43,771 bases of DNA from an archaeon (GCA_037140195.1 JBAXEZ010000003.1:1-43771), one strand, 5' to 3'. Positions 20,542 to 31,460 are shown, numbered from the stretch's first letter. Notes: generated from the sequence alone by a model not told the origin. Program-made: numbers and translations.

Positions 20542-20959
20542 ATGGTATTGTGGACCAGCATCGGTAAAAATGGTTTTAGACAGTTATGGGATTCTAAAAA
20601 CACAAAGGGAGATTGGAAAAGTTTTAAGTGCAACAAAAGAAGATGGGTGCGATATTCCTAATAATTTGGGAGCATTTGAAACATTTGGAGTTAAAGCCAA
20701 ATACAAAAAAAATTCTTCATTGAAAATAGTTGGAGAACTAATTAAAAAGGGCATCTATCCCATTCTATATTGGAATAGAAAAAATTCTGGAGGGCATTAT
20801 TCTGTCTTCACAGGAATAGATGAAAAAAGAGTTTACATTGCAGATCCGGGGAACACCAAAAGAATTATAAGTTTCACACGTGAAAGATTTTTGGAAAGAT
20901 GGAAAGATCCTGAAAATCACAAAGATAAACACGAAATAATAGTTATCACGTATCCTTAG
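20504..20959 (+). CDS. C39-like cysteine peptidase
   Basis: QQ...YCGPAS, GHYSV..G.D and IADP (Cys-His-Asp); overlaps the tgt 3' end by 38 bp. Confidence 0.75.
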   Translation: MRAKIRLITQQNKWYCGPASVKMVLDSYGILKTQREIGKVLSATKEDGCDIPNNLGAFETFGVKAKYKKNSSLKIVGELIKKGIYPILYWNRKNSGGHYSVFTGIDEKRVYIADPGNTKRIISFTRERFLERWKDPENHKDKHEIIVITYP

Positions 20960-20986
20960 CGAACTTTGTTCGTTTTGGAGGCGAAG

Positions 20987-21093
20987 GCATCCTTAGTATA
21001 TCGGTAGTATGAAGCCTTCCCAAGAACTGCATGGCAGTCCATGTTTCCTAACGGAAAAAGGCTTAGAGCCGGGTTCAATTCCCGGAGGGTGCA
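20987..21093 (+). tRNA. tRNA-Gly(CCC) with a 36-nt intron (21023-21058) at position 37/38
   Basis: Acceptor GCATCCT/AGGGTGC+A, anticodon stem AAGCC/GGCTT, anticodon CCC at 21019-21021, T-arm CCGGG-TTCAATT-CCCGG. BHB formed by the TTCC/GGAA helix with CAA and AAA bulges; no encoded CCA. Confidence 0.93.
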
Positions 21094-21208
21094 TTTTGCG
21101 AAACTCTGAAAGAGTTCGCAAGGCAACGAGCGAGATAATTGTCGAGTTGCCGCTATCGGACTTTTTCGACCGAACTATGAGTTCGGAATTATACGAAAAA
21201 AGTCCTTT
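21092..21208. repeat. Structured intergenic repeat, copy 1 (three hairpins)
   Basis: CATTTTGCGAAACTC..GAGTTCGCAA-GGCAAC..GTTGCC-GCTATC-GGACTTTTTCG..CGAAAAAAGTCC. Confidence 0.8.
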
Positions 21209-21252
21209 CGTTTCTTTTTGCGAAACGCAAATTGCGAGCAGTAGGGTGTATT

Positions 21253-22851
21253 TTATTTTATACAAGCTTTCACAAATCCACTAAATAGCGGGGCAGGAGT
21301 CAATAAAGAGCTTTTGAATTCCGGATGTGCTTGAGTGGCAACAAAAAAGGGATGATTTTCTAACTCAATGAATTCGACTAACCGATTATCTGGGCTAAGT
21401 CCTGAAATAACTAGCCCTTTCTCTTGTAATATCTGGTGATAAGCAGGGTTAACTTCATATCTATGTCTATGTCTCTCAAATACTTCGGATGAGTTATACA
21501 ATGAATAAACTTTGCTATTTTCCTTTATTAGTGCTTTACAACTTCCAAGTCTCATTGTTCCACCCATGTCAACAACATTTTTCTGAGCATCCATTAGCGT
21601 AATTATTTTATTTTCAGTATTTGGATTCATCTCCGTTGAATTAGAATCCGCAAGTCCGCAAACATCTCTCGCATACTCCACGACGGCAGCTTGTAAACCT
21701 AAACATATCCCTAAAAATGGAATTTTATTTTCTCTTAAATATTTTATAACTTCTATTTTTCCTTCCCATCCTCTGTTTCCAAAACCTCCTGGGATAATTA
21801 TTCCATCAAATCCATCAATTGCATCTGCTACCGATTGTTCTGTCTCAATTAATTCGCTATCCAAAAATTTAATTTCTGCGTGTACATCAAAATTAGCTGC
21901 TGCGTGCTTTATTGCCTCGACAACGCTCGCGTAGGAATCTCCTAGGGCTGTATATTTTCCGCAAATACCAATTTTAATTTTCTTTTTTGAATCTTTTTCA
22001 ACCATTCTTCTTGCCAAGATATTCCAAGGTTCTAAAGTGTTTTTACTAATTTTTAAATTAAGCTTTCTCTCAAGTACTTCGACGAAATTTTGTTTTTCTA
22101 ATTCCTGCGGAATTAAGTAAATAGACTCGACATCTTTTCCCGTAAACACGCAGTCGTTGTCTACATTACAGAACAAAGCAATTTTATTTTTTATTTTTTC
22201 ATCTAAGTATTCTTCACATCGACAAACAATAATATCTGGCCAGATACCAATTTCATTTAAGAGTTTAACACTCATTTGTGTCGGCTTAGATTTCTGCTCG
22301 TTAACTCCTGTTGGTACAGGAACATAAGATAAATGGATAAATGCAACGTTCTCTCGTCCAACGTCATGTGCAAGTTGCCTCACTGCTTCCAAATATAAAG
22401 CATTCTCTAAATCTCCCACCGTTCCTCCAATTTCAATGAATAAAACATCTGCGTTTTCCTGTTCTCCAACTTTTTTTATTCTAGATTTAATCTCGTCAGT
22501 TACGTGCGGGACAAATTGAACTGTTTTTCCTAAGTATTCTCCATGTCTTTCTTTATCTAAAATGGATTTGAAAATTTTTCCCATTGTAAGATTCCAATTT
22601 CCCTTTGAAGAGGTTTGAATAAATCTCTCATAATGTCCAAAATCCATATCGCATTCTGTTCCATCATCTAAAACAAAAACTTCTCCGTGCTCAACAGGAT
22701 TCATAGTTCCCGGATCAATATTCAAATATCCATCGCACTTCACTGCCGCACATTTGCAATCCGAAGATAAAAGTTTTCCAATAGATGCTGCTAAGACTCC
22801 TTTACCTAAACCAGAAATCACACCCCCCGTAACAATAATATATTTTCGCAT
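21253..22851 (-). CDS. pyrG: CTP synthase
   Basis: TGGVISGLGKG, HGEVFVLDDG.E.D.D.GHYERF, GICLGLQ, RHRHRYE and QAHPEF motifs. Confidence 0.97.
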   Translation of the reverse strand: MRKYIIVTGGVISGLGKGVLAASIGKLLSSDCKCAAVKCDGYLNIDPGTMNPVEHGEVFVLDDGTECDMDFGHYERFIQTSSKGNWNLTMGKIFKSILDKERHGEYLGKTVQFVPHVTDEIKSRIKKVGEQENADVLFIEIGGTVGDLENALYLEAVRQLAHDVGRENVAFIHLSYVPVPTGVNEQKSKPTQMSVKLLNEIGIWPDIIVCRCEEYLDEKIKNKIALFCNVDNDCVFTGKDVESIYLIPQELEKQNFVEVLERKLNLKISKNTLEPWNILARRMVEKDSKKKIKIGICGKYTALGDSYASVVEAIKHAAANFDVHAEIKFLDSELIETEQSVADAIDGFDGIIIPGGFGNRGWEGKIEVIKYLRENKIPFLGICLGLQAAVVEYARDVCGLADSNSTEMNPNTENKIITLMDAQKNVVDMGGTMRLGSCKALIKENSKVYSLYNSSEVFERHRHRYEVNPAYHQILQEKGLVISGLSPDNRLVEFIELENHPFFVATQAHPEFKSSLLTPAPLFSGFVKACIK

Positions 22852-22978
22852 CAGTCAAAATGAATTTATCTGTTTATAAAACTTCACAGCCAAAAATATA
22901 TATTCTGAATCCGAAGGGTTATTAAATACTCAAAAGCTGTGATATTATACGCCCAAAACCGATTTATTTTTCTAAAGA

Positions 22979-23272
22979 TTATCGTTTTTGATCTCTTCTG
23001 TAAAAATCATTCAATGTAGAATATTGTGGAATTAAATGGTTTACTCTTTCAAAATCTTCTTCGGTCATAGGTCTGCAATTCATGCAGGGCCTATACTCTT
23101 GAACAACAGCGTCTTCCAATGTATGAAAGAATACTCTATTTGACTTCTTCATTCTCATTCCAGATTTACAATCTAATCTTCCAAATATTTTTCCTGGACT
23201 CCATCCCGCATATTCTCCGGGAGTAGAACTTTCTATAATTTTGCCTTCTTTCAAAATCTTATACATTTTCAT
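22979..23272 (-). CDS. Ada metal-binding-domain-like protein
   Basis: KIFGRLDCKSG, NRVFF and YRPCMNC motifs. Confidence 0.7.
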   Translation of the reverse strand: MKMYKILKEGKIIESSTPGEYAGWSPGKIFGRLDCKSGMRMKKSNRVFFHTLEDAVVQEYRPCMNCRPMTEEDFERVNHLIPQYSTLNDFYRRDQKR

Positions 23273-23298
23273 TAGAAAGAGTATTGTGGCATCTTTTA

Positions 23299-24153
23299 TT
23301 AATCTAACGCTAACATTATTTTATTAACTTCATCCACATTTTTTGTTGATGAGAGCTTATTTCTAATCTCCTTAGCGTTATTCATTCCTTTCGTAAAGTT
23401 AATCGCCTGATATTTTATTTGTCTAAAGAATAGTTTGTATTTTTCGGCTAGCTTTAAGTAATCTTCAAATTTAATTTTTTTATTTTTACCGAGTAGTTTA
23501 TAAAATATTCCCGGATTTCCAATAGCTTCGCGAGCAACCATAATAAAGTCGAAATTTTCTAATAATGTATTTATATTTCTTTCATTAACATTTCCCGAGT
23601 ATATAATAGGTAAATTTATTTCTTTTTTAATTCTTAAAGCAAACTCTAAATCCGGTTCTCCAGAATACCCTTGTTTTTGTGTTCTAGGATGAATTCCTAT
23701 CGCATCTACATATTTGCTAGCCATTTTAGCAATTTCTAGAGCCTTCTCAGACTTTCGCAGTTTAATAGTAATTGGTTTTTTTGTACTTTCTCGCATTACT
23801 TTTAAGATTTCTTCTATTGCCTTAATGTCTACATGCAAAAATGAACCAAAACCCAACTTTTCTGCCAAAGTAGATGGACAACCAAGATTAAAATCAAATA
23901 AAACAACTTTTTTTTCATGTTTTTTAATAAATTCTTTTATTCCTTTAGGCCTTGTACAAAATATTTGTACTGCAGGTTTATCATCGAAAATTATCTTTTG
24001 TTTACTCAAAGGGTTTATCATTCCAGTATAAGTCAAAGCACAACCCGCCTTTTTACAGAGAAGCCTGAATACAATATCGTTGGGTTCTAACATCGGAGCC
24101 AAAAAAAATCTATTTTTTGGTTTGAACTTTCCTATATTATATTTTAATTCCAT
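23299..24153 (-). CDS. dus: tRNA-dihydrouridine synthase family protein
   Basis: LAPM, NLGCP, GS.L, KLR, HPRT..QGYSG and AIGNP motifs. Confidence 0.88.
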   Translation of the reverse strand: MELKYNIGKFKPKNRFFLAPMLEPNDIVFRLLCKKAGCALTYTGMINPLSKQKIIFDDKPAVQIFCTRPKGIKEFIKKHEKKVVLFDFNLGCPSTLAEKLGFGSFLHVDIKAIEEILKVMRESTKKPITIKLRKSEKALEIAKMASKYVDAIGIHPRTQKQGYSGEPDLEFALRIKKEINLPIIYSGNVNERNINTLLENFDFIMVAREAIGNPGIFYKLLGKNKKIKFEDYLKLAEKYKLFFRQIKYQAINFTKGMNNAKEIRNKLSSTKNVDEVNKIMLALD

Positions 24154-24259
24154 TTTACCAAACTCCTCTGGAGTTGGTAAGGCAACAAACGAGTAAAGTT
24201 GCCGCTATCGGACTTTTTCGACCAGCTAACTGCTGGAAAGAATGCGAAAAAAGTCCTTT
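24151..24259. repeat. Structured intergenic repeat, copy 2
   Basis: CATTTTACCAAACTCC..GGAGTTGGTAA-GGCAAC..GTTGCC-GCTATC-GGACTTTTTCG..CGAAAAAAGTCC. Confidence 0.8.
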
Positions 24260-24272
24260 TATAAATCTCATT

Positions 24273-24731
24273 TTATATTTTAATCCCGTACTTTTGTGCA
24301 AGAGCAGTAAGTTCTTCCTTGCTTAATGAACCATTAGTAATACTCTCGTTTAATTTGTTTGGATTCTCACAATATATTCTTGCTTCGCTAAACTTTTTAT
24401 CAAAATCAGATTTCAACGCAGGTAATGTTTCACACTTTACAGGCACCTCTTTTATTTTTCCAATTGCTATTTTAATAACTGGATTTTTACATGCGCTAGC
24501 GACTTCCTTTTCTATTTTTTTAAAACTATTTTCAATCTCATTTAATTGTGTACAGTCTCTTTGTTCAGCTAGCAAACGAGAACTAGTTTCTATTTTTGCA
24601 CTTTCTTCTGTAACAACCGTGACTACTTTAGAAGCTTGGTAAGCACTAACTCCCAATATAACAAAAATAATAATTATCAAGGCCAAAACTCCCAGCAATA
24701 TTTTTCCAATCAACCCTTTTTTGTTCTTCAT
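24273..24731 (-). CDS. Membrane-anchored protein with a class III signal-peptide-like N-terminus
   Basis: MKNKKG followed by a long hydrophobic helix; 4 Cys in the C-terminal domain. Confidence 0.65.
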   Translation of the reverse strand: MKNKKGLIGKILLGVLALIIIIFVILGVSAYQASKVVTVVTEESAKIETSSRLLAEQRDCTQLNEIENSFKKIEKEVASACKNPVIKIAIGKIKEVPVKCETLPALKSDFDKKFSEARIYCENPNKLNESITNGSLSKEELTALAQKYGIKI

Positions 24732-24752
24732 TCCTTAGCTAGAACATTTAGG

Positions 24753-24760
24753 TTTATAAA
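24753..24760. promoter_or_regulatory. Palindromic bidirectional TATA box
   Basis: TTTATAAA lies 22 nt from both divergent ATGs (24731 and 24782). Confidence 0.6.
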
Positions 24761-24781
24761 TCTTAAAGTCCTTAATATTTT

Positions 24782-25234
24782 ATGAAAATTAGTAGTCCTG
24801 AGCTAAAAGAAAAGGAAAAATTTCCCGTTGTGTTTACGGGAGAGGGAGCAAATGTTTCTCCACCGTTAATAATTGAAGAAGTCCCTATAAATTCCAAGTC
24901 ATTGTTGCTAATTGTTGAAGATCCGGACGCAGAAAAAGTTAGCGGACATACTTGGATTCATTGGATTCTATACAATATTCCTGCAGAAAGAACAGTAGAG
25001 ATTAACAAAAATTCTTATTTAGGCCTTCGGGGAATAAATGACTATGGTAAACTGCAATATGCGGGGCCAATGCCTCCTCGTGCGGGCGGAACCCATCACT
25101 ATTATTTCAAAGTATTTGCATTAGACTGCGAGTTAGACTTGGGCGAAGGTGTAAATTTGGAAAAAATAAAAAAGAAGATCGACAAACACGTTATAGACAA
25201 AGCAGAATTTTATGGGGTTTACTGGAGAGATTAA
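24782..25234 (+). CDS. YbhB/YbcL (PEBP, Raf-kinase-inhibitor-like) protein
   Basis: NVSPPL, EDPDA, WIHW.LYNIP, Y.GP.PP and H.Y.F.V.ALD motifs. Confidence 0.9.
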   Translation: MKISSPELKEKEKFPVVFTGEGANVSPPLIIEEVPINSKSLLLIVEDPDAEKVSGHTWIHWILYNIPAERTVEINKNSYLGLRGINDYGKLQYAGPMPPRAGGTHHYYFKVFALDCELDLGEGVNLEKIKKKIDKHVIDKAEFYGVYWRD

Positions 25235-25812
25235 ACGTCTATCGTATACTCATAAACTTTATCATATGGAATATAAATTCCGCAAGTTTCTTCGACAGAT
25301 AACTTTTCCATTATTTTTCTAAACAATCTAATAGAATTTCCATGTGCCGAAATTGCAACATTAACTTTGTTCTTTTTCATATACTCTTTCAAGAATTTAA
25401 CAAAGTCCGAGACTCTTTTTTCAACGTCCTTAAAAGATTCTCCCTTTGGCGGTCGCACATCCCAACTTCTATGCCACAGATCATATTTTTCGACTCCAAA
25501 TTTTTTAACAACTTCTAAATGTGTTCTTCCGTTTAAATTACCATAGTTTCTTTCTCTCATTCTGTCGTCCTCAAAAACATGTAAACACTCTGGATGGAAC
25601 GCTATAACTTCTTTTAGTGTGTTTTTAGAACGAGAAAGAGAAGTATGAAAGGCAACTTCAAACTTTTTGTTTTTTAGTCTTTCAGCAACAATTTTTGCAT
25701 CTTCTATTCCTACTGTAGATAATCCTGCGTCAAACCAACCCGTAAATTTGCTATCTCTGTTAAAATCAGTCTGGCCGTGTCTAAAAATATAAATTTTCAA
25801 CCTACTTTTCAT
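25231..25812 (-). CDS. gpmA: Histidine phosphatase, cofactor-dependent phosphoglycerate mutase-like
   Basis: RHGQT..N....FTGW.D, ERNYG.L.G, PP.GES and AHGNS.R motifs. Confidence 0.8.
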   Translation of the reverse strand: MKSRLKIYIFRHGQTDFNRDSKFTGWFDAGLSTVGIEDAKIVAERLKNKKFEVAFHTSLSRSKNTLKEVIAFHPECLHVFEDDRMRERNYGNLNGRTHLEVVKKFGVEKYDLWHRSWDVRPPKGESFKDVEKRVSDFVKFLKEYMKKNKVNVAISAHGNSIRLFRKIMEKLSVEETCGIYIPYDKVYEYTIDV

Positions 25813-25872
25813 AGAGTTAACAATAAAGAAGACTATAAAAACATTTTTATATCTAGTTATCTTGATTTATTT

Positions 25873-26202
25873 ATGCTACTTATAATAATTGCCATAGTCC
25901 TGGTTGTCATGTTCATAATAACTATGTTCATTCATTTTGAGCATAAACTAAAAGCAGTGAAGGCTGTTGCTTTAATCTTAATTCTCTTAATTATCGGAAG
26001 CTCAGTTTATACCTGGATAAGGAACGATACTAACGACCTAAATTCTCCGAAAGGAGTTGTTAACTCTATATATATGTATACTGGTTGGATGGGTGAAATA
26101 GGGATAAAGCTGGTTTCCACACTCACCGAGAGCTTTAATGCCGTAGGGAATGTGGTAAAAGGAAACGAAACTAGGCAGAATCCCTCAGATGGGAGAAGAT
26201 AA
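25873..26202 (+). CDS. Small membrane protein (two TM helices)
   Basis: Hydrophobic N-terminus; ATG 25873 lies 22 nt after TTTTTATA. Confidence 0.65.
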   Translation: MLLIIIAIVLVVMFIITMFIHFEHKLKAVKAVALILILLIIGSSVYTWIRNDTNDLNSPKGVVNSIYMYTGWMGEIGIKLVSTLTESFNAVGNVVKGNETRQNPSDGRR

Positions 26203-26204
26203 TC

Positions 26205-26714
26205 TCAACTAGAGATTTTGACGCCTACATCAAGTCTTCCAAGCTCACAAATTTCTTGAACAACTCCTTCGTTTCTAACTGCCTTACAAATAGAAACAAA
26301 AGTCCCATATTCTACCACATTTGTCTGATTTGAGTTGTATACTTCGTAATAAGAACAATTTGCAGCAGGGCACCGTATATTTTTCACATTCATAGGAAAA
26401 ACTTTTCTCACTCTAATGGAAGCAACCGGCCAGAAGTTTTTATAGCTTTTAGATATCGTAGCGAAAGTGATTACTTTATCTTCATCAAGACACATAGTAC
26501 GCGAAGAATCACAATTCAACTCGGGCATATTGGAAATCGTTTCTACCGAAGATATTGCACTTTCTCGTTGAAGATTATTAAAATTTTCAGCAATTTTTCC
26601 AGATTGAATAGACAGAAAGAATAATCCTGCAAAAGTAAAAAATATAAACACAAACAGAATCATAAAAGTCATCTGCATAATCTTCATATCTGCTAATTTA
26701 TTCATCTCTACCAC
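26205..26714 (-). CDS. Membrane-anchored pilin-like Cys-containing protein
   Basis: NKLA/DMKIMQM followed by a hydrophobic helix (degenerate class III signal); paired Cys; GGAGG upstream of GTG. Confidence 0.6.
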   Translation of the reverse strand: MVEMNKLADMKIMQMTFMILFVFIFFTFAGLFFLSIQSGKIAENFNNLQRESAISSVETISNMPELNCDSSRTMCLDEDKVITFATISKSYKNFWPVASIRVRKVFPMNVKNIRCPAANCSYYEVYNSNQTNVVEYGTFVSICKAVRNEGVVQEICELGRLDVGVKISS

Positions 26715-27676
26715 AGTTTACATCCTCCTTCTCTTAGATTCTTCTTTTCCAAATCGTTTGCTAAATAGTAAACAGATTCCAAATCCTTAGCACTTGCATT
26801 TTGCAATATAATTGCAAACTTATCTAAATCAGTTTTTAATAAACTACTGCAGCCACGCATACTCATCAAATCTATTTTTCTAGATAAAATGTCTGCTACT
26901 CTAGATGAACGATAAAGTAATCTTTTAACATTACACTCATAAACATTTTTATCAGAAAGCAAAGCTGCATAGATTAAACTTCCAGAATAATAAGTTCGCG
27001 TTCCATTTTCATCAGTAATATATCCGAAGTCATAAGCGGAACTACATCTAGACTCGCTACACTCTCCTTTAACAGTAATTTCACATCCACTGGTCCCAAA
27101 ACAAATTTTCTTCGCACCATCCGAACAGGTGTTATTTCCCTCTTCCAATTGTAGCCCTATATTTGGTACATTCAAACCAGAAACTTCTTCCTCAATTTCC
27201 TTAGGTGGAAAAACAAAGCAGTAATCTTCTGTAGACATAAATATTAAATCAGTTACCTTATAGCCAGTATAAAATGGTTTAGAATAAACATAAAAAGTTT
27301 TTCCTTCCTGGAAATTTGAAAAAAGATATTTATTGAAGATTTTATATTCTCCAGGATTATCTGTCCAAGCCTGTCCGACGGAAGCCTTCGTCTGAACCGA
27401 AATAACATTTTCTCCAAATTTAGAATCGGTATCGCATTCGTTGTTTATTCTTGTGTCTCTCCTAAAAGTAATTCTAGAAGTAGAACCTTCTGCAAATCCT
27501 GCCTGTAGCGGATTCGTTATAATATCTAGAGATTTAGCCAGTTCGAATTCTGTTTGTTTTTGTAATCCGCTTCCAGCTTTAACTGCGCCATAAATTGCCA
27601 GAAGTAAAATCATTGAACCTGCAACAATTGCAAAAATTAAAACAAAATTAAACTCACCCTTCTTATTTAATTTCAT
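26708..27676 (-). CDS. Class III signal-peptide (pilin-like) Cys-rich protein
   Basis: MKLNKKG/EFNFVLIF. ATG 27676 preferred; the upstream MPTPEEFGK is translated repeat sequence. Confidence 0.7.
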   Translation of the reverse strand: MKLNKKGEFNFVLIFAIVAGSMILLLAIYGAVKAGSGLQKQTEFELAKSLDIITNPLQAGFAEGSTSRITFRRDTRINNECDTDSKFGENVISVQTKASVGQAWTDNPGEYKIFNKYLFSNFQEGKTFYVYSKPFYTGYKVTDLIFMSTEDYCFVFPPKEIEEEVSGLNVPNIGLQLEEGNNTCSDGAKKICFGTSGCEITVKGECSESRCSSAYDFGYITDENGTRTYYSGSLIYAALLSDKNVYECNVKRLLYRSSRVADILSRKIDLMSMRGCSSLLKTDLDKFAIILQNASAKDLESVYYLANDLEKKNLREGGCKLW

Positions 27677-27726
27677 TTTGCCAAACTCCTCGGGAGTTGG
27701 CAAGGTTGTTCAAAACAACCGCTATC
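27674..27726. repeat. Structured intergenic repeat, copy 3 (hairpins 1-2 and GCTATC)
   Basis: CATTTTGCCAAACTCC..GGAGTTGGCAA-GGTTGTT..AACAACC-GCTATC. Confidence 0.75.
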
Positions 27727-27764
27727 TTTCTTGGTAACTACGAACAAAGTGAGTAATCTGTTAA

Positions 27765-28268
27765 TCATTTTATAGTAACTCCTCTGTCATAATATCCTTT
27801 AACGATTCTTATAGTACTGCCGCCAGAAACATCAAAGCACAAGGGATTTTTAACTTGGGTAGTTTTACTTAGATTTAGATATTTAATCGTCTTGTATGGC
27901 ATATCGCAGGCTTTCTGCGTAGGTAGGATAAAGGTGTTAGCCGCGTAAACTGCGTACATGCTCAGCTCTTCATAGGCACTATTAGGCCCCGTAACTTTTT
28001 CAGTTAAATTAGCAAAACAGAGTTGTTTAATTCCTGGAATATTCACTTCCATTTCAAAATCAGAAGAAGAAGACCTGTAAGCCTCGCCTACCTTGTCTTG
28101 AAATGAATCATAAAATGCTCCAACTTGCGTACAGCTCTTGATATTCAAAAAAGCCTTTATACCATATATTGCAGTAAATATAAAAAATAAAATTAAGATA
28201 AGTGAGAAGATCCAACCAAAGGACATCCCTATTGCTCCGTCACCCTTTTTATTCAATATGCTTCTCAT
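27765..28268 (-). CDS. Class III signal-peptide (pilin-like) protein
   Basis: LNKKG...MSFGWIFSLIL hydrophobic helix; 4 Cys. Confidence 0.7.
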   Translation of the reverse strand: MRSILNKKGDGAIGMSFGWIFSLILILFFIFTAIYGIKAFLNIKSCTQVGAFYDSFQDKVGEAYRSSSSDFEMEVNIPGIKQLCFANLTEKVTGPNSAYEELSMYAVYAANTFILPTQKACDMPYKTIKYLNLSKTTQVKNPLCFDVSGGSTIRIVKGYYDRGVTIK

Positions 28269-28411
28269 TTTTTAACTCCTGCTACTGGAAAAGTTCCTTC
28301 GTAACCACAGTCTTTACATTTCATAGCATTGTTTGGTAATGCATCGGTCGCCCAAACTTGCCAATTAGAACCTTTGCATTTGGGACAAATATTCTTATTC
28401 TTAGCCGTCAC
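28265..28411 (-). CDS. Small zinc-ribbon protein (48 aa), absent from the ORF track
   Basis: GTG start; MTAKNKNICPKCKGSNW...MKCKDCGYEGTFP with two CxxC pairs; ends in an ATGA overlap; AGGAG upstream. Confidence 0.7.
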   Translation of the reverse strand: MTAKNKNICPKCKGSNWQVWATDALPNNAMKCKDCGYEGTFPVAGVKK

Positions 28412-28412
28412 T

Positions 28413-31400
28413 TTATACTCCTAAGAAATTTTCTGTAGGTCTTACAATCAAAGAGCAATCAACCGGTTCAGATCTATATTCGTCTCTACATTTAATAAAA
28501 TACTTTTTATCAGGGAACCATTCTGTTACGTGTGTTGTTGAATTAGCGTATGGCATTTGAGTTCCTTCACTGAATAAATAATCACAACTTTCAGAGTTGT
28601 ATACACATTCAGAATTTAATGGAGTTACGAGTTTCAAATATCCTTCTTCTTCGTAAGCTCTAGCAACTACCGGTGCATTTACATCAATACTTACTTTGAA
28701 TTTTGTCGTCGTATTAGCTACGTTTCCGCCCGCGTCTATACATCTAATGAAATAAGTATGTGTTCCGTCTCCCAAATCTAATCTTTGTGTATGCACTCCG
28801 TCTTGTTTGTCGGTATCAAAGAATTGTATAAAACTACTTGGAGAATTAGTTGTAGAATAATAACAAATTGCTTTGTTGTCTTCACATCCAAATAATGTTT
28901 CAGCATATAACTCAACTGGTGCAGGCCTAACTGCTCCGTATATTGTCTCATTTGGTCTTACAACCTTTAATTTCAATTGATTGCTTCCCCTTAAATTAAA
29001 TACATAACTTTCTTTGTTTGTGTTTCTCTTACTTTCATTTACTGTGCCGGAAGGTTGGTCCTTACATCTTACATAGAAGTTTGTTCCATCTCTTGCAATT
29101 CCATTTAATTTTGTTACACAAGTATAACTTTCTATCGCATTAATCTCTGCAGGATTTGTGCTACAAGTCATTTCAGTCTTCATTTGTTCATAATCTCTGT
29201 CTGTGAAATCCCATCTACACTGTGCTGGCTCATTTACATAAAATTCTACAGTTGCATTTTCAGCGTCTGCAGGAACACATCCTTTATTTTTGATTGAAGT
29301 TCCATGAACAACTGGTGCTGTGTTATCTGGAGAAGGATCTACACATAATTTAAGTGCATAATCTGCTTCATTTGCATTTCCTGCAGCATCCTTACATCTT
29401 ATATAGAACAATAATTCTTTTCCATTCTGTAATGTAATAGATGAATTCTTTATATCTGCAGATGAAGGCAAATTCAAAGACTCAGTATGGTTATAAGAAT
29501 ATAAGTTACTTCCTCCCATGAAAGTTGCCATTCTCGAATAATTTCCTTTAGCTTCAATATCAATCTTACATTGTGAAGGTTCATTCGTTGTGATTGCAAA
29601 TTTAAGTGGTGTGTAAGCAGGTATACATCCATTAGATTTACTACTCTCGATGTTAAATCCTGCTCCTGGTGGCATTTCTACAACATGAGTATAAGAATAT
29701 CCTTCAGTTATTTCAGATTCCAATGGTTTAATTACTGGGGGAGAAGAATCTCTTGGATTAATATTTACACATCTTTCTTCCTTAGTTCCTTTGTTCACAA
29801 TTGCACAAGATTGTCCTAATGATTTACATCTATATTCAGAACATGGAAGTGTTGCATCATTACATAACTCGCAATCTTTTCCACCCTGGGGTGCTTGCCA
29901 TGGTAAACAAGTAAATGTAACTGTTTCAGTGCTTGTTTTTTCTTTAGACCACATTGCATTATATATTAACCATGCTGATGCTGCGCCAATTGCTGCAGAT
30001 GTCCAAGGAGAAGATAGCCAGTTTCCACCAATATCTACTTTTTTACTCCCAAGTGTTGCTTCTCCAATTTTTCCGTCAAGCTTTCCATTGATACCGCCCC
30101 TCCCTAGAAAAGCATAAGCAGTTTTTCCAATTAAAATTCCTCCAACAATACCTGCAGTCATTGCTGCAACTTCTTGTTTATCTTTAATAAATAAACTTCC
30201 TAAAGTCATTGTTAATCCTGCCGCAATTCCTGCCCATTTTAGTCCTTCCATTACTTGTCCAACTCCAAAACTCCAATCAGTTCCGAAAACTTTCATTGTG
30301 CCTCTATCTAAAAATTTTCCGTTATTGTTATAGTTAGCTCCGCTAGGGGATACCCACTTTGTAGGATTGCCGGTTGCATCAAATTCAGTAGGTACAGATC
30401 CCTCAGGACCTACATATGGTGATTTTCTTAATAAACCATCGCTCCCCTGGACATAAACTTTTCCATTAATTTCTATATAGGCATTTTCTCCCTTATTTGA
30501 TATTACTCTCCCAATTCCTCCACTGAATGTTTTAGTTTTAGGGTCATATACAAATCCGTCAGGTAATTTATAACTTCCATCTGGGAGCGGTCGAATTTCT
30601 TCCCATGTGGTTCCCCCAGACGTGGAAGATAATATCTGGGTCGTTTCTCGCCCGTTATTCCCCACAATTGTTCTGGTTTTATATCCGGTCACTACATCTC
30701 CCTGAGTAGTATAACTAACTGCACTCTCTTTATATGCTAATTTACTTGGGTCAATTGTTCCGCCTACTAGAATTTTATTAGTTGATAACTCTCGATCTAA
30801 AAGAATGGTATTTCTTCCACTCATTACAAAATATTCCCCCTCCTCATTTTTTGAAAAAGTTTTTACTTGAATATTGTTCTTACCATCATAAACTTGGAAT
30901 GCATTTTGTACGGTGTATGTTTCTAGTGGTGCCTGAGCTATAATTGTTTCTGCAGTTTGAGCAATAGTTGGTGCACCATATTGGGAAGTTAATGTAGGAA
31001 TAGTAGTTACTGGTGCTACTTTGTAATCTAGGTTAGTAGAATAAAATCCTTCAGTACTTAGTTTAACATTGGGGGTAGGTGCTCTGTTCGCAGCAGCTTC
31101 TTGATTTGCAGTAACTTGCTCTTCTTGGCCAAGAGTTGATACGTCCGTTTGAGGCGTAGTGCTTGCTAATGTCAAGCTCGCAGTTTCCAGGTTATAAAGG
31201 CCCCCTATATCACTTGCAGTAAATGTCCTCTGATTGTAAGTTTGCCCACCAGTGACTACCCAAGTGTTCTCTCCGTATTTTTTAATGCTCTCACCATAAC
31301 CCCTATCTAAAATTGATCCGACGGGTGCGCTTTGTAAATCGTTAACATTAATCGCGCTAACAATCTTTGTCTCACTTCCAATCATATATGCAAAAGCAAA

Positions 31401-31460
31401 TGTAGAAATAATTAACATTAATGCAAAACTTACCGAAGTTATTTTTGCTGTTTTATTCAT
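28413..31460 (-). CDS. Large exported protein: Thr/Gly-rich N-region, Gly-rich hydrophobic core, Cys-rich beta-rich C-module
   Basis: N-terminal hydrophobic signal; CLPWQAPQGG.DCELCN...CSEYRCKSLGQSC; repeated Y.RC.D..GN units. Confidence 0.75.
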   Translation of the reverse strand: MNKTAKITSVSFALMLIISTFAFAYMIGSETKIVSAINVNDLQSAPVGSILDRGYGESIKKYGENTWVVTGGQTYNQRTFTASDIGGLYNLETASLTLASTTPQTDVSTLGQEEQVTANQEAAANRAPTPNVKLSTEGFYSTNLDYKVAPVTTIPTLTSQYGAPTIAQTAETIIAQAPLETYTVQNAFQVYDGKNNIQVKTFSKNEEGEYFVMSGRNTILLDRELSTNKILVGGTIDPSKLAYKESAVSYTTQGDVVTGYKTRTIVGNNGRETTQILSSTSGGTTWEEIRPLPDGSYKLPDGFVYDPKTKTFSGGIGRVISNKGENAYIEINGKVYVQGSDGLLRKSPYVGPEGSVPTEFDATGNPTKWVSPSGANYNNNGKFLDRGTMKVFGTDWSFGVGQVMEGLKWAGIAAGLTMTLGSLFIKDKQEVAAMTAGIVGGILIGKTAYAFLGRGGINGKLDGKIGEATLGSKKVDIGGNWLSSPWTSAAIGAASAWLIYNAMWSKEKTSTETVTFTCLPWQAPQGGKDCELCNDATLPCSEYRCKSLGQSCAIVNKGTKEERCVNINPRDSSPPVIKPLESEITEGYSYTHVVEMPPGAGFNIESSKSNGCIPAYTPLKFAITTNEPSQCKIDIEAKGNYSRMATFMGGSNLYSYNHTESLNLPSSADIKNSSITLQNGKELLFYIRCKDAAGNANEADYALKLCVDPSPDNTAPVVHGTSIKNKGCVPADAENATVEFYVNEPAQCRWDFTDRDYEQMKTEMTCSTNPAEINAIESYTCVTKLNGIARDGTNFYVRCKDQPSGTVNESKRNTNKESYVFNLRGSNQLKLKVVRPNETIYGAVRPAPVELYAETLFGCEDNKAICYYSTTNSPSSFIQFFDTDKQDGVHTQRLDLGDGTHTYFIRCIDAGGNVANTTTKFKVSIDVNAPVVARAYEEEGYLKLVTPLNSECVYNSESCDYLFSEGTQMPYANSTTHVTEWFPDKKYFIKCRDEYRSEPVDCSLIVRPTENFLGV

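Follow-up and report, generated by a model that had tools for sequence, protein, structure and literature searches.

Hairpin-built mosaic repeats at archaeal start codons, probably mobile and tolerated through translational coupling

Three structured intergenic elements in a 43,771-nucleotide (nt) stretch of archaeal DNA (GCA_037140195.1 JBAXEZ010000003.1:1-43771, hereafter the window) belong to a repeat family with 33 loci in the genome from which the window comes (G000). We consider it probable that this family is a non-autonomous, mobile mosaic repeat that occupies start codons and is tolerated there through translational coupling, by way of a small open reading frame (ORF) that runs through the element. 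Its behavior is that of mobile DNA and not of an RNA dedicated to regulation. An earlier sequence-only reading of the window had noticed the three copies and their compensatory changes and had left the choice between an RNA switch and a mobile repeat; the latter fits better in light of the variable copy number, the empty sites in relatives, the mosaic build and the unrelated genes that follow, although not in the form of a classical repetitive extragenic palindrome (REP) or MITE (miniature inverted-repeat transposable element). The two most telling features had been missed in that reading, namely that insertion falls exactly at the start codon and that a small ORF is threaded through the element.

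Covariation, modules and distribution of the family

A motif scan of the whole G000 assembly (1.08 Mb in 116 contigs, 83% complete) returned 18 full copies, which were aligned with MAFFT, folded together with RNAalifold and made into a covariance model, R1. The common structure comprises 32 base pairs in four helices, 19 of which are changed on both sides. Specifically, 99.1% of the cells in this alignment are paired, compared with 36–59% (and 3–5 double-change pairs) when the partners are slid by 1–3 columns, and none of 500 shuffles reached the observed values; the copies are mutually related, hence these and all later counts over copies overstate independence. Further copies had been expected from the window alone, and R1 found them: 34 matches in G000 represent 33 loci (one of the short matches being the P1 portion of a composite), with 21 of full length (93–136 bits) and 13 shorter. 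Likewise, the family corresponds to no known Rfam entry, as had been supposed; Rfam 15 gave no match at gathering score over the window and, at E ≤ 1 between 20900 and 27900, only tRNA.

The element measures about 60–190 nt and consists, in order, of a 5′ module (P1, P1′ or P1″), a G[AT]TAGC linker, the hairpins P2 and P3, and AAAATG. In the shorter forms P1 is swapped for P1′ (ATGACAAACAAAATACTCACTTCGTTCGTAGTTGTCA-like) or P1″ (CTCACAATAAACAAAATAAATTTTGAGTTCGCAAGG-like). Because P1, P2 and P3 have variants that are combined in many ways between copies, and extra pieces lie in some of the loops, the family is a mosaic of shuffled modules. Many copies have a GGAG within P3, 9 nt ahead of the ATG, while about half lack it and are of the type TTGCGATTTTTTC...GAAAAATATCGCAA. 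A crude search for 9-nt hairpins of any kind that close at ..AAAATG returned 84 sites, mostly noise, missed the bulged type of P3 and was left unused.

The model was also run on 40 relatives (7 congeners and 33 genomes of 31 other genera), whose genomes are incomplete (52–98%), so that a zero means only that nothing was found. Across the eight species of the genus the matches per genome number 32 (G000, under stricter filters), 24, 9, 4, 3, 2, 0 and 0, and the 33 genomes of other genera gave no match except one weak one (E 8e-4). The family is restricted to one genus, and its copy number varies within it. In 43 matches from five congeners, 96.5% of the cells are paired and 29 of the 32 pairs show double changes (34–58% and 6–13 with slid partners), in an alignment that was made to R1 and hence leans toward the structure by construction. 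An exact 18-nt pattern had 24 loci in named public genomes, about the chance expectation and mostly in unrelated bacteria; two loci occurred only in one metagenome-assembled genome, titled Candidatus Woesearchaeota archaeon.

The three window copies share one orientation, on the minus strand. Copies 1 (21092–21206; R1, 113.8 bits) and 2 (24151–24257; 103.9 bits) are full elements and lie where the sequence-only reading had placed them. In plus-strand coordinates, copy 1 has P3 at 21096–21121, P2 at 21122–21151, GCTATC at 21152–21157 and P1, with a nested stem, at 21158–21205; the corresponding parts of copy 2 are 24155–24180, 24181–24203, 24204–24209 and 24210–24256, and its GGAG sits in the 3′ arm of P3, 9 nt ahead of the ATG. 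Copy 3 had been drawn too short, at 27674–27726; with its small ORF the element extends over 27674–27768 (38.6 bits for 27674–27750), with P3 at 27678–27703, P2 at 27704–27720, GCTATC at 27721–27726 and, in place of the missing P1, a P1′ module at 27727–27768 that opens with an ATG (27768–27766) and is common to at least ten other copies. The pairings themselves had been read correctly. P3 is TTGCGAA/TTCGCAA, TTACCAA/TTGGTAA and TTGCCAA/TTGGCAA in the three copies, each with a one-base bulge and a CTC/GAG top; P2 is GGCAAC/GTTGCC in two copies and GGTTGTT/AACAACC in the third; GCTATC follows P2 in all three (family-wide, on the minus strand, G[ATC]TA[GTA]C); P1 is GGACTTTTTCG/CGAAAAAAGTCC with nested stems that differ between copies 1 and 2; and CATTTT, or AAAATG on the minus strand, is present in every copy. 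Read along the minus strand toward the ATG, the layout is RAGGAC, P1 as GGACTTTTTTCG...CGAAAAAGTCC with its variable nested stem, the GATAGC linker, P2, P3 as TTRCNAACTCC...GGAGTTTGGYAA with one bulged base, and AATG. The predicted folds of copies 1, 2 and 3 have energies of −40.3, −38.1 and −23.4 kcal/mol (z of −5.75, −4.98 and −3.36 against dinucleotide shuffles), and the opposite strand of each folds as well as the sense strand. Contigs from four public lake-water metagenome runs, two of which are possibly the source of the window DNA, match all three copies without difference.

Junctions with host genes and the small open reading frame

All copies end in AAAATG, in one case as AAAGTG, and the terminal ATG opens an ORF at 30 of the 33 loci. 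This ORF has at least 90 amino acids at 27 of these 30; two shorter ones have 37 and 45 amino acids, the 45-residue gene having orthologues in relatives, and at one locus a GGAGG and a 39-residue ORF lie 11 nt behind the end of the element. The remaining three loci, copy 1 included, adjoin the 3′ end of an antisense tRNA gene, where the final CA together with a T run reads AAAATG; two more tRNA-adjacent copies were recognized by eye in relatives. By a crude ORF call, the nearest upstream ORF runs in the same direction at 26 of the 33 loci and diverges at 7, and the genome has 198 AAAATG sites that are wholly intergenic versus 265 at predicted starts, with no copy at a non-start site.

In the window, the terminal ATG of copy 2 (24153–24151) is the start codon of a gene like dihydrouridine synthase (Dus) (23299–24153, minus strand; Pfam PF01207, E 2.3e-32), and that of copy 3 (27676–27674) starts a pilin-like gene (26708–27676, minus strand; N-terminal MKLNKKGEFNFVLIF...), which was taken from the ORF list with its start set by relatives and had no match in a Pfam scan. 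Both ATGs had been taken for genuine starts, and rightly so. The ATG of copy 1 (21094–21092) overlaps the 3′ end of an opposite-strand tRNA, as had also been noted. This is a tRNA-Gly(CCC) gene (20987–21093, plus strand) whose 36-nt intron follows position 37. It escaped default ARAGORN and the whole-window Rfam gathering pass and was found in the E-value mode of Rfam (RF00005, 44.5 bits) and by ARAGORN with introns allowed. Its CA-3′ end and the adjoining T run make AAAATG on the other strand, which is the target of copy 1.

The downstream proteins have no common function, which argues against a regulon. Pfam matches were obtained for 22 of the 27 scanned, and they include proteins of translation and transcription (aRF1, aIF2-beta, an ABCE1-like ATPase, RpoK, SBDS), enzymes (Dus, peptidases M24 and M29, an ERCC4 nuclease, NUDIX, a diphthine-synthase-like methylase, a CoA ligase) and others such as OapB, a GTPase, DnaJ, an FtsX permease and a secretion ATPase. 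Some of these genes are probably essential, and the element is tolerated ahead of them too.

Empty sites, which the sequence-only reading had proposed to look for, were present for all six filled G000 sites that were compared: the Dus, CTP synthase/tRNA and pilin-like sites of the window and three on other contigs (C12:17555, C10:2337 and C10:2786). The pilin-like site is empty in the congeners G002, G003 and G006, where the two genes are joined by a single ATGA; in G000, with slashes at the junctions, it reads ...ATAAAATGA/TTAACAG...element...GGCAAAATGA/AATTAAAT. For C12:17555 the empty sequences are GATAAAATGGCAAAAAAAG in G006 and GGTAAATGGTTAAAAAAG in G003, and the filled one is GTAAAAATG/AGAAAT...GGTAAAATG/GTGAAAAAAG. 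At C10:2337, G002 has GGAGGGGCAAGAATG/GTACAAATG and G000 has CAACAATG/ACAAAC...TGTAAAATG/GTAAAAATG. The Dus site is again empty in G002, G003 and G006, where the upstream gene overlaps the Dus start with no element between; in G000 the 17-nt overlap, ATGG[GA]ATTAAAATATAA, stands on both sides of the element (24258–24290 and 24130–24153, minus strand), and the old ATG of the left copy now reads ACG, a synonymous change for the upstream gene. The doubled 17 nt reflect either a long duplication that arose on insertion or a previous separation of the two overlapping genes.

Upstream of copy 1 lies a CTP synthase-like gene (21253–22851, minus strand; from the ORF list, with orthologues in relatives), whose name is a reading of its translation, no family search having been run. 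In G002, 3 nt separate its stop from the antisense tRNA end. In G000 copy 1 is flanked by AAAATACACCCTAC and AAAATGCACCCTCC: by comparison with the G002 empty site, the stretch between the CTP synthase stop and P1 (21207–21252, minus strand) is a left flank in which AAAATACACCCTAC represents a second, diverged copy of the right-junction AAAATGCACCCTCC, and which also has a remnant like the 3′ arm of P3 (GTTTCGCAAAAAG). At C10:2786 (locus L048, C10:2535–3038) the insertion is about 290 nt long and consists of the element, the GGAGG and the 39-residue ORF (MEYKITYRTGRNCIRP...); the whole piece is absent in G001 and G002, and this is the only copy that is not on a pre-existing start codon. The reciprocal situation also occurs, in that G003 has an element ahead of its orthologue of the window gene at 26205–26714, whereas in G000 this site is empty and the gene, with a GTG start, simply overlaps the stop of the pilin-like gene. 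Since each compared site is filled in one species only, gain is more parsimonious than repeated precise loss.

Base-by-base reading is possible at five protein-gene sites. In each, the element follows the start ATG immediately and the gene now starts at the element's terminal ATG, so that an ATG stands on both sides, whether as a duplication or as an insertion target. The stretches shared at the junctions are 4, 6, 7 and 7 nt long; two sites apparently have longer ones, of 14 and 17 nt. ATG invariably closes the left flank; the base ahead of it, at presumed left ends, is A in roughly half, T in a third and G or C in the rest.

An ATG-started ORF of 29–78 codons passes through the whole element at 26 of the 30 protein-adjacent loci (the last locus read by eye). 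Its stop is a TAA 1 nt ahead of the gene ATG (..GTAAAATG) at 13 loci, an ATGA overlap at 6, ATGGTAA, ATGGTAG or ATGGTGA at 4, and lies 14–19 nt into the gene at 3; the foot of P3 is ..GTAA in all 13 TAA cases and ..GCAA or ..TCAA in all 13 others. Relative to the host gene the small ORF is in frame +1 or +2 at all 26 loci and never in frame 0. The frame over the linker varies between copies (..SDSG.. or ..SPIA.., the third frame containing TAG), and the ORF stays open although loop lengths and frames vary; because the frame differs between copies, it is openness that is kept rather than a peptide. Of the 33 copies, 32 have one or more sense frames without a stop (the exception being tRNA-adjacent), compared with 19 of 33 for the antisense strand and a mean of 11.5 and a maximum of 19 in 200 shuffles. 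In relatives, 25 of 41 copies have such a small ORF.

Where an empty site is available for comparison, as for copy 3, the start of the small ORF is the displaced original ATG. The small ORF of copy 3 has 31 codons (27673–27768, minus strand; MINRLLTLFVV...RSLAK), starts in an ATGA with the upstream TGA and ends with its own TGA in an ATGA with the pilin-like start. That of copy 2 has 38 codons (24155–24271, minus strand; MRFIKGLF...RGVW); its ATG follows the TAA of the upstream gene (24273–24731, minus strand) by 1 nt and its own TAA precedes the Dus-like ATG by 1 nt, giving TAA-A-ATG at both ends. Frame analysis detects no through-running small ORF in copy 1. The public runs listed for 22900–25300 of the window are six DNA runs and no RNA run. 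A bulge-helix-bulge intron, programmed frameshifting and translational bypass were considered and dropped, since the stems form local hairpins and a stop of its own ends the small ORF.

Mobile repeat, leader RNA or gene

A model of coupling through the small ORF is plausible on sequence grounds. The element would enter in one orientation, exactly at a start codon or at a tRNA 3′ end that reads AAAATG, and the ATG would be duplicated. The displaced ATG, served by the old ribosome-binding site or by coupling to the upstream gene, would then open the stop-free small ORF, which is predicted to be translated and to couple translation to the host gene; a ribosome passing through would melt the hairpins, including P3, and so expose the GGAG that many P3 hairpins hold paired 9 nt ahead of the new ATG, terminate at or beside that ATG and reinitiate there to read the host gene. 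For Haloferax, experiments reviewed in PMC12548453 have demonstrated restart at spacings of −4 to +1 nt. An insertion of this kind would cost the host little and could persist even before essential genes. The stems may be kept because propagation, as single-stranded DNA or RNA, or coupling needs them, and the compensatory differences may reflect evolving source copies that require structure for being copied rather than a function at each locus. That the stems are preserved, by selection or by inheritance, is borne out by the double changes; a gene-specific regulatory RNA is not, given the unrelated genes, the empty sites and the shuffling of modules.

It is worth considering what weighs against this account, apart from the relatedness of the copies. 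A short target and purifying selection alone may be too little to account for the restriction to true starts. Two explanations offer themselves: a targeting more specific than is apparent in the sequence, or an advantage of copies that lie at starts. The lack of a fixed duplication length does not appear to fit a single transposase cut. Terminal inverted repeats are missing, the best local left-versus-right complementarity being 6.85 compared with 6.35 in shuffled sequences (20 full copies), and a mover is hard to name: the linked HUH or REP-associated tyrosine (RAYT) transposase that the sequence-only reading had suggested was not found in G000 (83% complete), Y1_Tnp (PF01797) being absent there and from six of the seven congeners; the TnpB zinc-ribbon domain (PF07282) was found in none of the eight genus genomes; and reverse transcriptase (RVT_1) and DDE_Tnp_1 genes, considered as movers, do not track copy number. 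The SBDS, ABCE1-like and CoA ligase sites are filled in two species, with different modules, and these insertions could be old, retained and perhaps useful. Coupling is not universal, an ATG-started small ORF being absent from 4 of the 30 loci in G000 and, in relatives, from 14 of 39 copies next to protein genes. Finally, contigs of the four metagenome runs over 20800–28400 showed no joints, hence no empty alleles.

A cis-regulatory leader RNA (a switch, a thermometer or a protein site), in which P3 hides the Shine-Dalgarno sequence and the start, would make the family a regulon that mobility had only assembled. The many compensatory changes in preserved stems, the GGAG 9 nt before the ATG in many P3 hairpins, the fixed position relative to the ATG, the three sites common to two species and a sense-strand ratio of G·U to A·C pairs of 12:2 in G000 all speak for such a role. 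We nonetheless regard it as quite unlikely: the genes downstream lack a common function, orthologues in sister species do without the element and in two congeners none was found, GGAG is missing from about half of the P3 hairpins, five copies lie antisense to tRNA genes with nothing there to regulate, the G·U excess is weak in relatives (23:17), and Rfam has no match. That the repeat is instead a gene for a small protein of 30–60 amino acids, some with a signal-peptide-like start (MTNKILTSFVVV...SGC), with incidental hairpins, is very improbable, even though the ATG-started ORF is so frequent and P1′-class copies have an N-terminal peptide of the MTNKI(L/F)TSFVVV type in common. The frame over the linker, P2 and P3 varies, the peptides are unrelated apart from the opening 12 residues in one subclass, the substitutions pair up across stems instead of being synonymous, and the 4 loci here and 14 copies in relatives counted above lack the ORF. 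As to a promoter or terminator cassette, T5–T6 runs in P1 and TATA-like boxes at variable distance upstream were seen, with no fixed geometry by eye; no formal scan was made and the idea was set aside.

A version of the mobile-repeat account that names a mechanism takes the family for a single-stranded DNA element of the IS200/IS605 or REP type (a palindrome-associated transposable element), moved in trans by an HUH tyrosine transposase that would recognize the subterminal hairpins, and inserted 3′ of the short target (A)ATG. Hairpins near both ends without terminal inverted repeats, strict orientation, and a left flank ending in ATG with a right end of AAAATG, as expected for alike cleavage sites, are in line with this; so is the tandem arrangement in G005, in which a second element begins directly behind the AAAATG of the first. 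Furthermore, the congener with 24 copies (G004) carries a Y1_Tnp gene, a 142-residue ORF of an IS200-like transposase at G004:C1:18460–18804 (L080 1447–1875). This gene is, however, the only one among the eight genomes and is not in G000, which has the most copies and is only 83% complete; it has end hairpins of its own (CTCTGCTT..AAGCAGAG and ACCTCGCCCT..AGGGCGGGGT) that are unlike the element (best R1 E-value 0.58), so it was rejected as the autonomous partner. With TnpB not found, no fixed base before the left-end ATG, and a three-base target that alone cannot explain exclusive use of true starts, we think this mechanism unlikely.

We entertain, as a doubtful yet possible extension of the preferred mobile-repeat account, that the element homes to true start codons and to the tRNA 3′ ends that mimic them without an element-linked transposase, and that the host keeps it as a strict coupling device, P3 hiding the ribosome-binding site so that the gene is translated only via the small ORF. 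Homing might then rely on microhomology between the element 3′ end, which is like a ribosome-binding site (GGAG-N9-ATG), and host start regions, for example the G003 empty site GGAGGGCAAAATG. If true, this would be a new mode of life for selfish DNA in a genome that is 90% coding, with some 30 natural termination-reinitiation junctions.

Known analogues and minor observations

The nearest known analogue appears to be the mycobacterial interspersed repetitive unit (MIRU), which the present family would resemble in its way of working without being a member. MIRUs are bacterial, measure 46–101 bp and often form tandem arrays; they are not known to form strong hairpins. By contrast, the present family, compared here by description and not by sequence, is archaeal, mostly solitary and 60–190 nt long, with three or four covarying hairpins in a mosaic; it has TAA-A-ATG junctions besides ATGA, and tRNA 3′ ends are also targeted. 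The exceptions to its solitary habit are the pair in G005 and one composite on C10. The likenesses, as far as the accessible text of PMC12548453 goes (which summarizes MIRUs as start-codon repeats with coupling and cites Supply et al. 1997, Mol Microbiol 26:991), are that both are short, interspersed, apparently mobile and situated at start codons or intercistronic junctions, that both have a co-directional small ORF whose end overlaps the downstream start, and that expression is largely intact after insertion through coupling, which for the present family is a prediction. Here, the counts that correspond to these features are the 30 of 33 loci at an ORF start, the 26 of 33 with an upstream ORF in the same direction, and 26 of 30 with small-ORF ends that abut or overlap the flanks.

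Other repeats are alike in part. Rickettsia palindromic elements are, in the portion of PMC10969869 available, palindromic mobile repeats of about 100–150 bp with an open frame that are translated through and therefore survive in a gene-dense reduced genome; they lie in-frame inside genes and become part of the protein, whereas the present element has a separate small ORF before the gene and in another frame. REP sequences, bacterial interspersed mosaic elements and pneumococcal BOX elements share with it the character of hairpin-forming, modular intergenic repeats that are lineage-specific and variable in copy number. REP sequences, however, stand after genes and depend on a RAYT (Y1), while the present element stands at gene 5′ ends and no RAYT was found in G000. 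BOX elements are not known to stand in a fixed register with start codons. Elements derived from IS200/IS605 also have subterminal hairpins, no inverted terminal repeats, strict orientation and a short fixed sequence at insertion, but for the present family no TnpA or TnpB partner was found in seven of eight genomes and the ends of the G004 Y1_Tnp gene are unrelated. The absence of terminal inverted repeats removes the family from the MITE class; in the part of a 2024 MITE review that was available, the phrase "start codon" does not occur and no DPANN lineage is among the archaea listed.

Seen against these systems, the family is an archaeal, hairpin-built variant of a rare class of repeats that insert at start codons, and the archaeal form is new. 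Interspersed repeats have hardly been described in DPANN archaea, and the full-text literature, with subscription journals outside its coverage, yielded no paper linking DPANN or Woesearchaeota with them. Landing on a start codon with a read-through ORF and a restart site would offer selfish DNA a route of spread where about 90% of the genome is coding, and such a life at start codons had, to go by the accessible text of PMC12548453, been noted previously only for mycobacterial MIRUs. On a practical level, gene callers will set wrong starts or miss the small ORFs at about 3% of the genes of this organism, and the roughly 30 natural junctions (TAA-A-ATG, ATGA, ATGGTAA), with or without a hidden GGAG, offer material for the study of archaeal termination-reinitiation. 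More generally, many compensatory changes among copies of a repeat are not by themselves proof of a regulatory RNA.

Several smaller observations are added here. Same-strand gene junctions in the genus, as seen at empty sites, often read TAAAATG, TAAATG or ATGA, and the element junctions copy these host coupling signals. Composite copies with an extra module (GAACTCACAAAATGCATTTCG...GTTTTGTTCACC) between P1 and the linker are present at C10:9384–9582 in G000 and at loci L097 and L100 in G004; the module contains another AAAATG, as though elements were nested. An inverted-repeat piece, ...CCCACAGGGATCATCCTGTTGGAAGT..., recurs in P3 loops (C73:519–671 in G000, L103 in G004, L118 in G007) and also lies between elements at L120 in G005 and L102 in G004; it may be a second, smaller nested repeat. 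At C55:7010–7050 (plus strand) in G000, another perfect hairpin (TATATAGGTTACAACCTATATA), unrelated to the family, stands directly ahead of an AAAATG near a DDE_Tnp_1 gene (C55:6291–6818). Within the window, the minus strand of 26205–31460 holds a run of genes, adjoining a gene for a 1015-residue protein, whose products begin with a few basic residues and then a hydrophobic helix (MKLNKKGEF..., MRSILNKKGDGAIGMSF...), and which looks like a pilin or surface-protein cluster.

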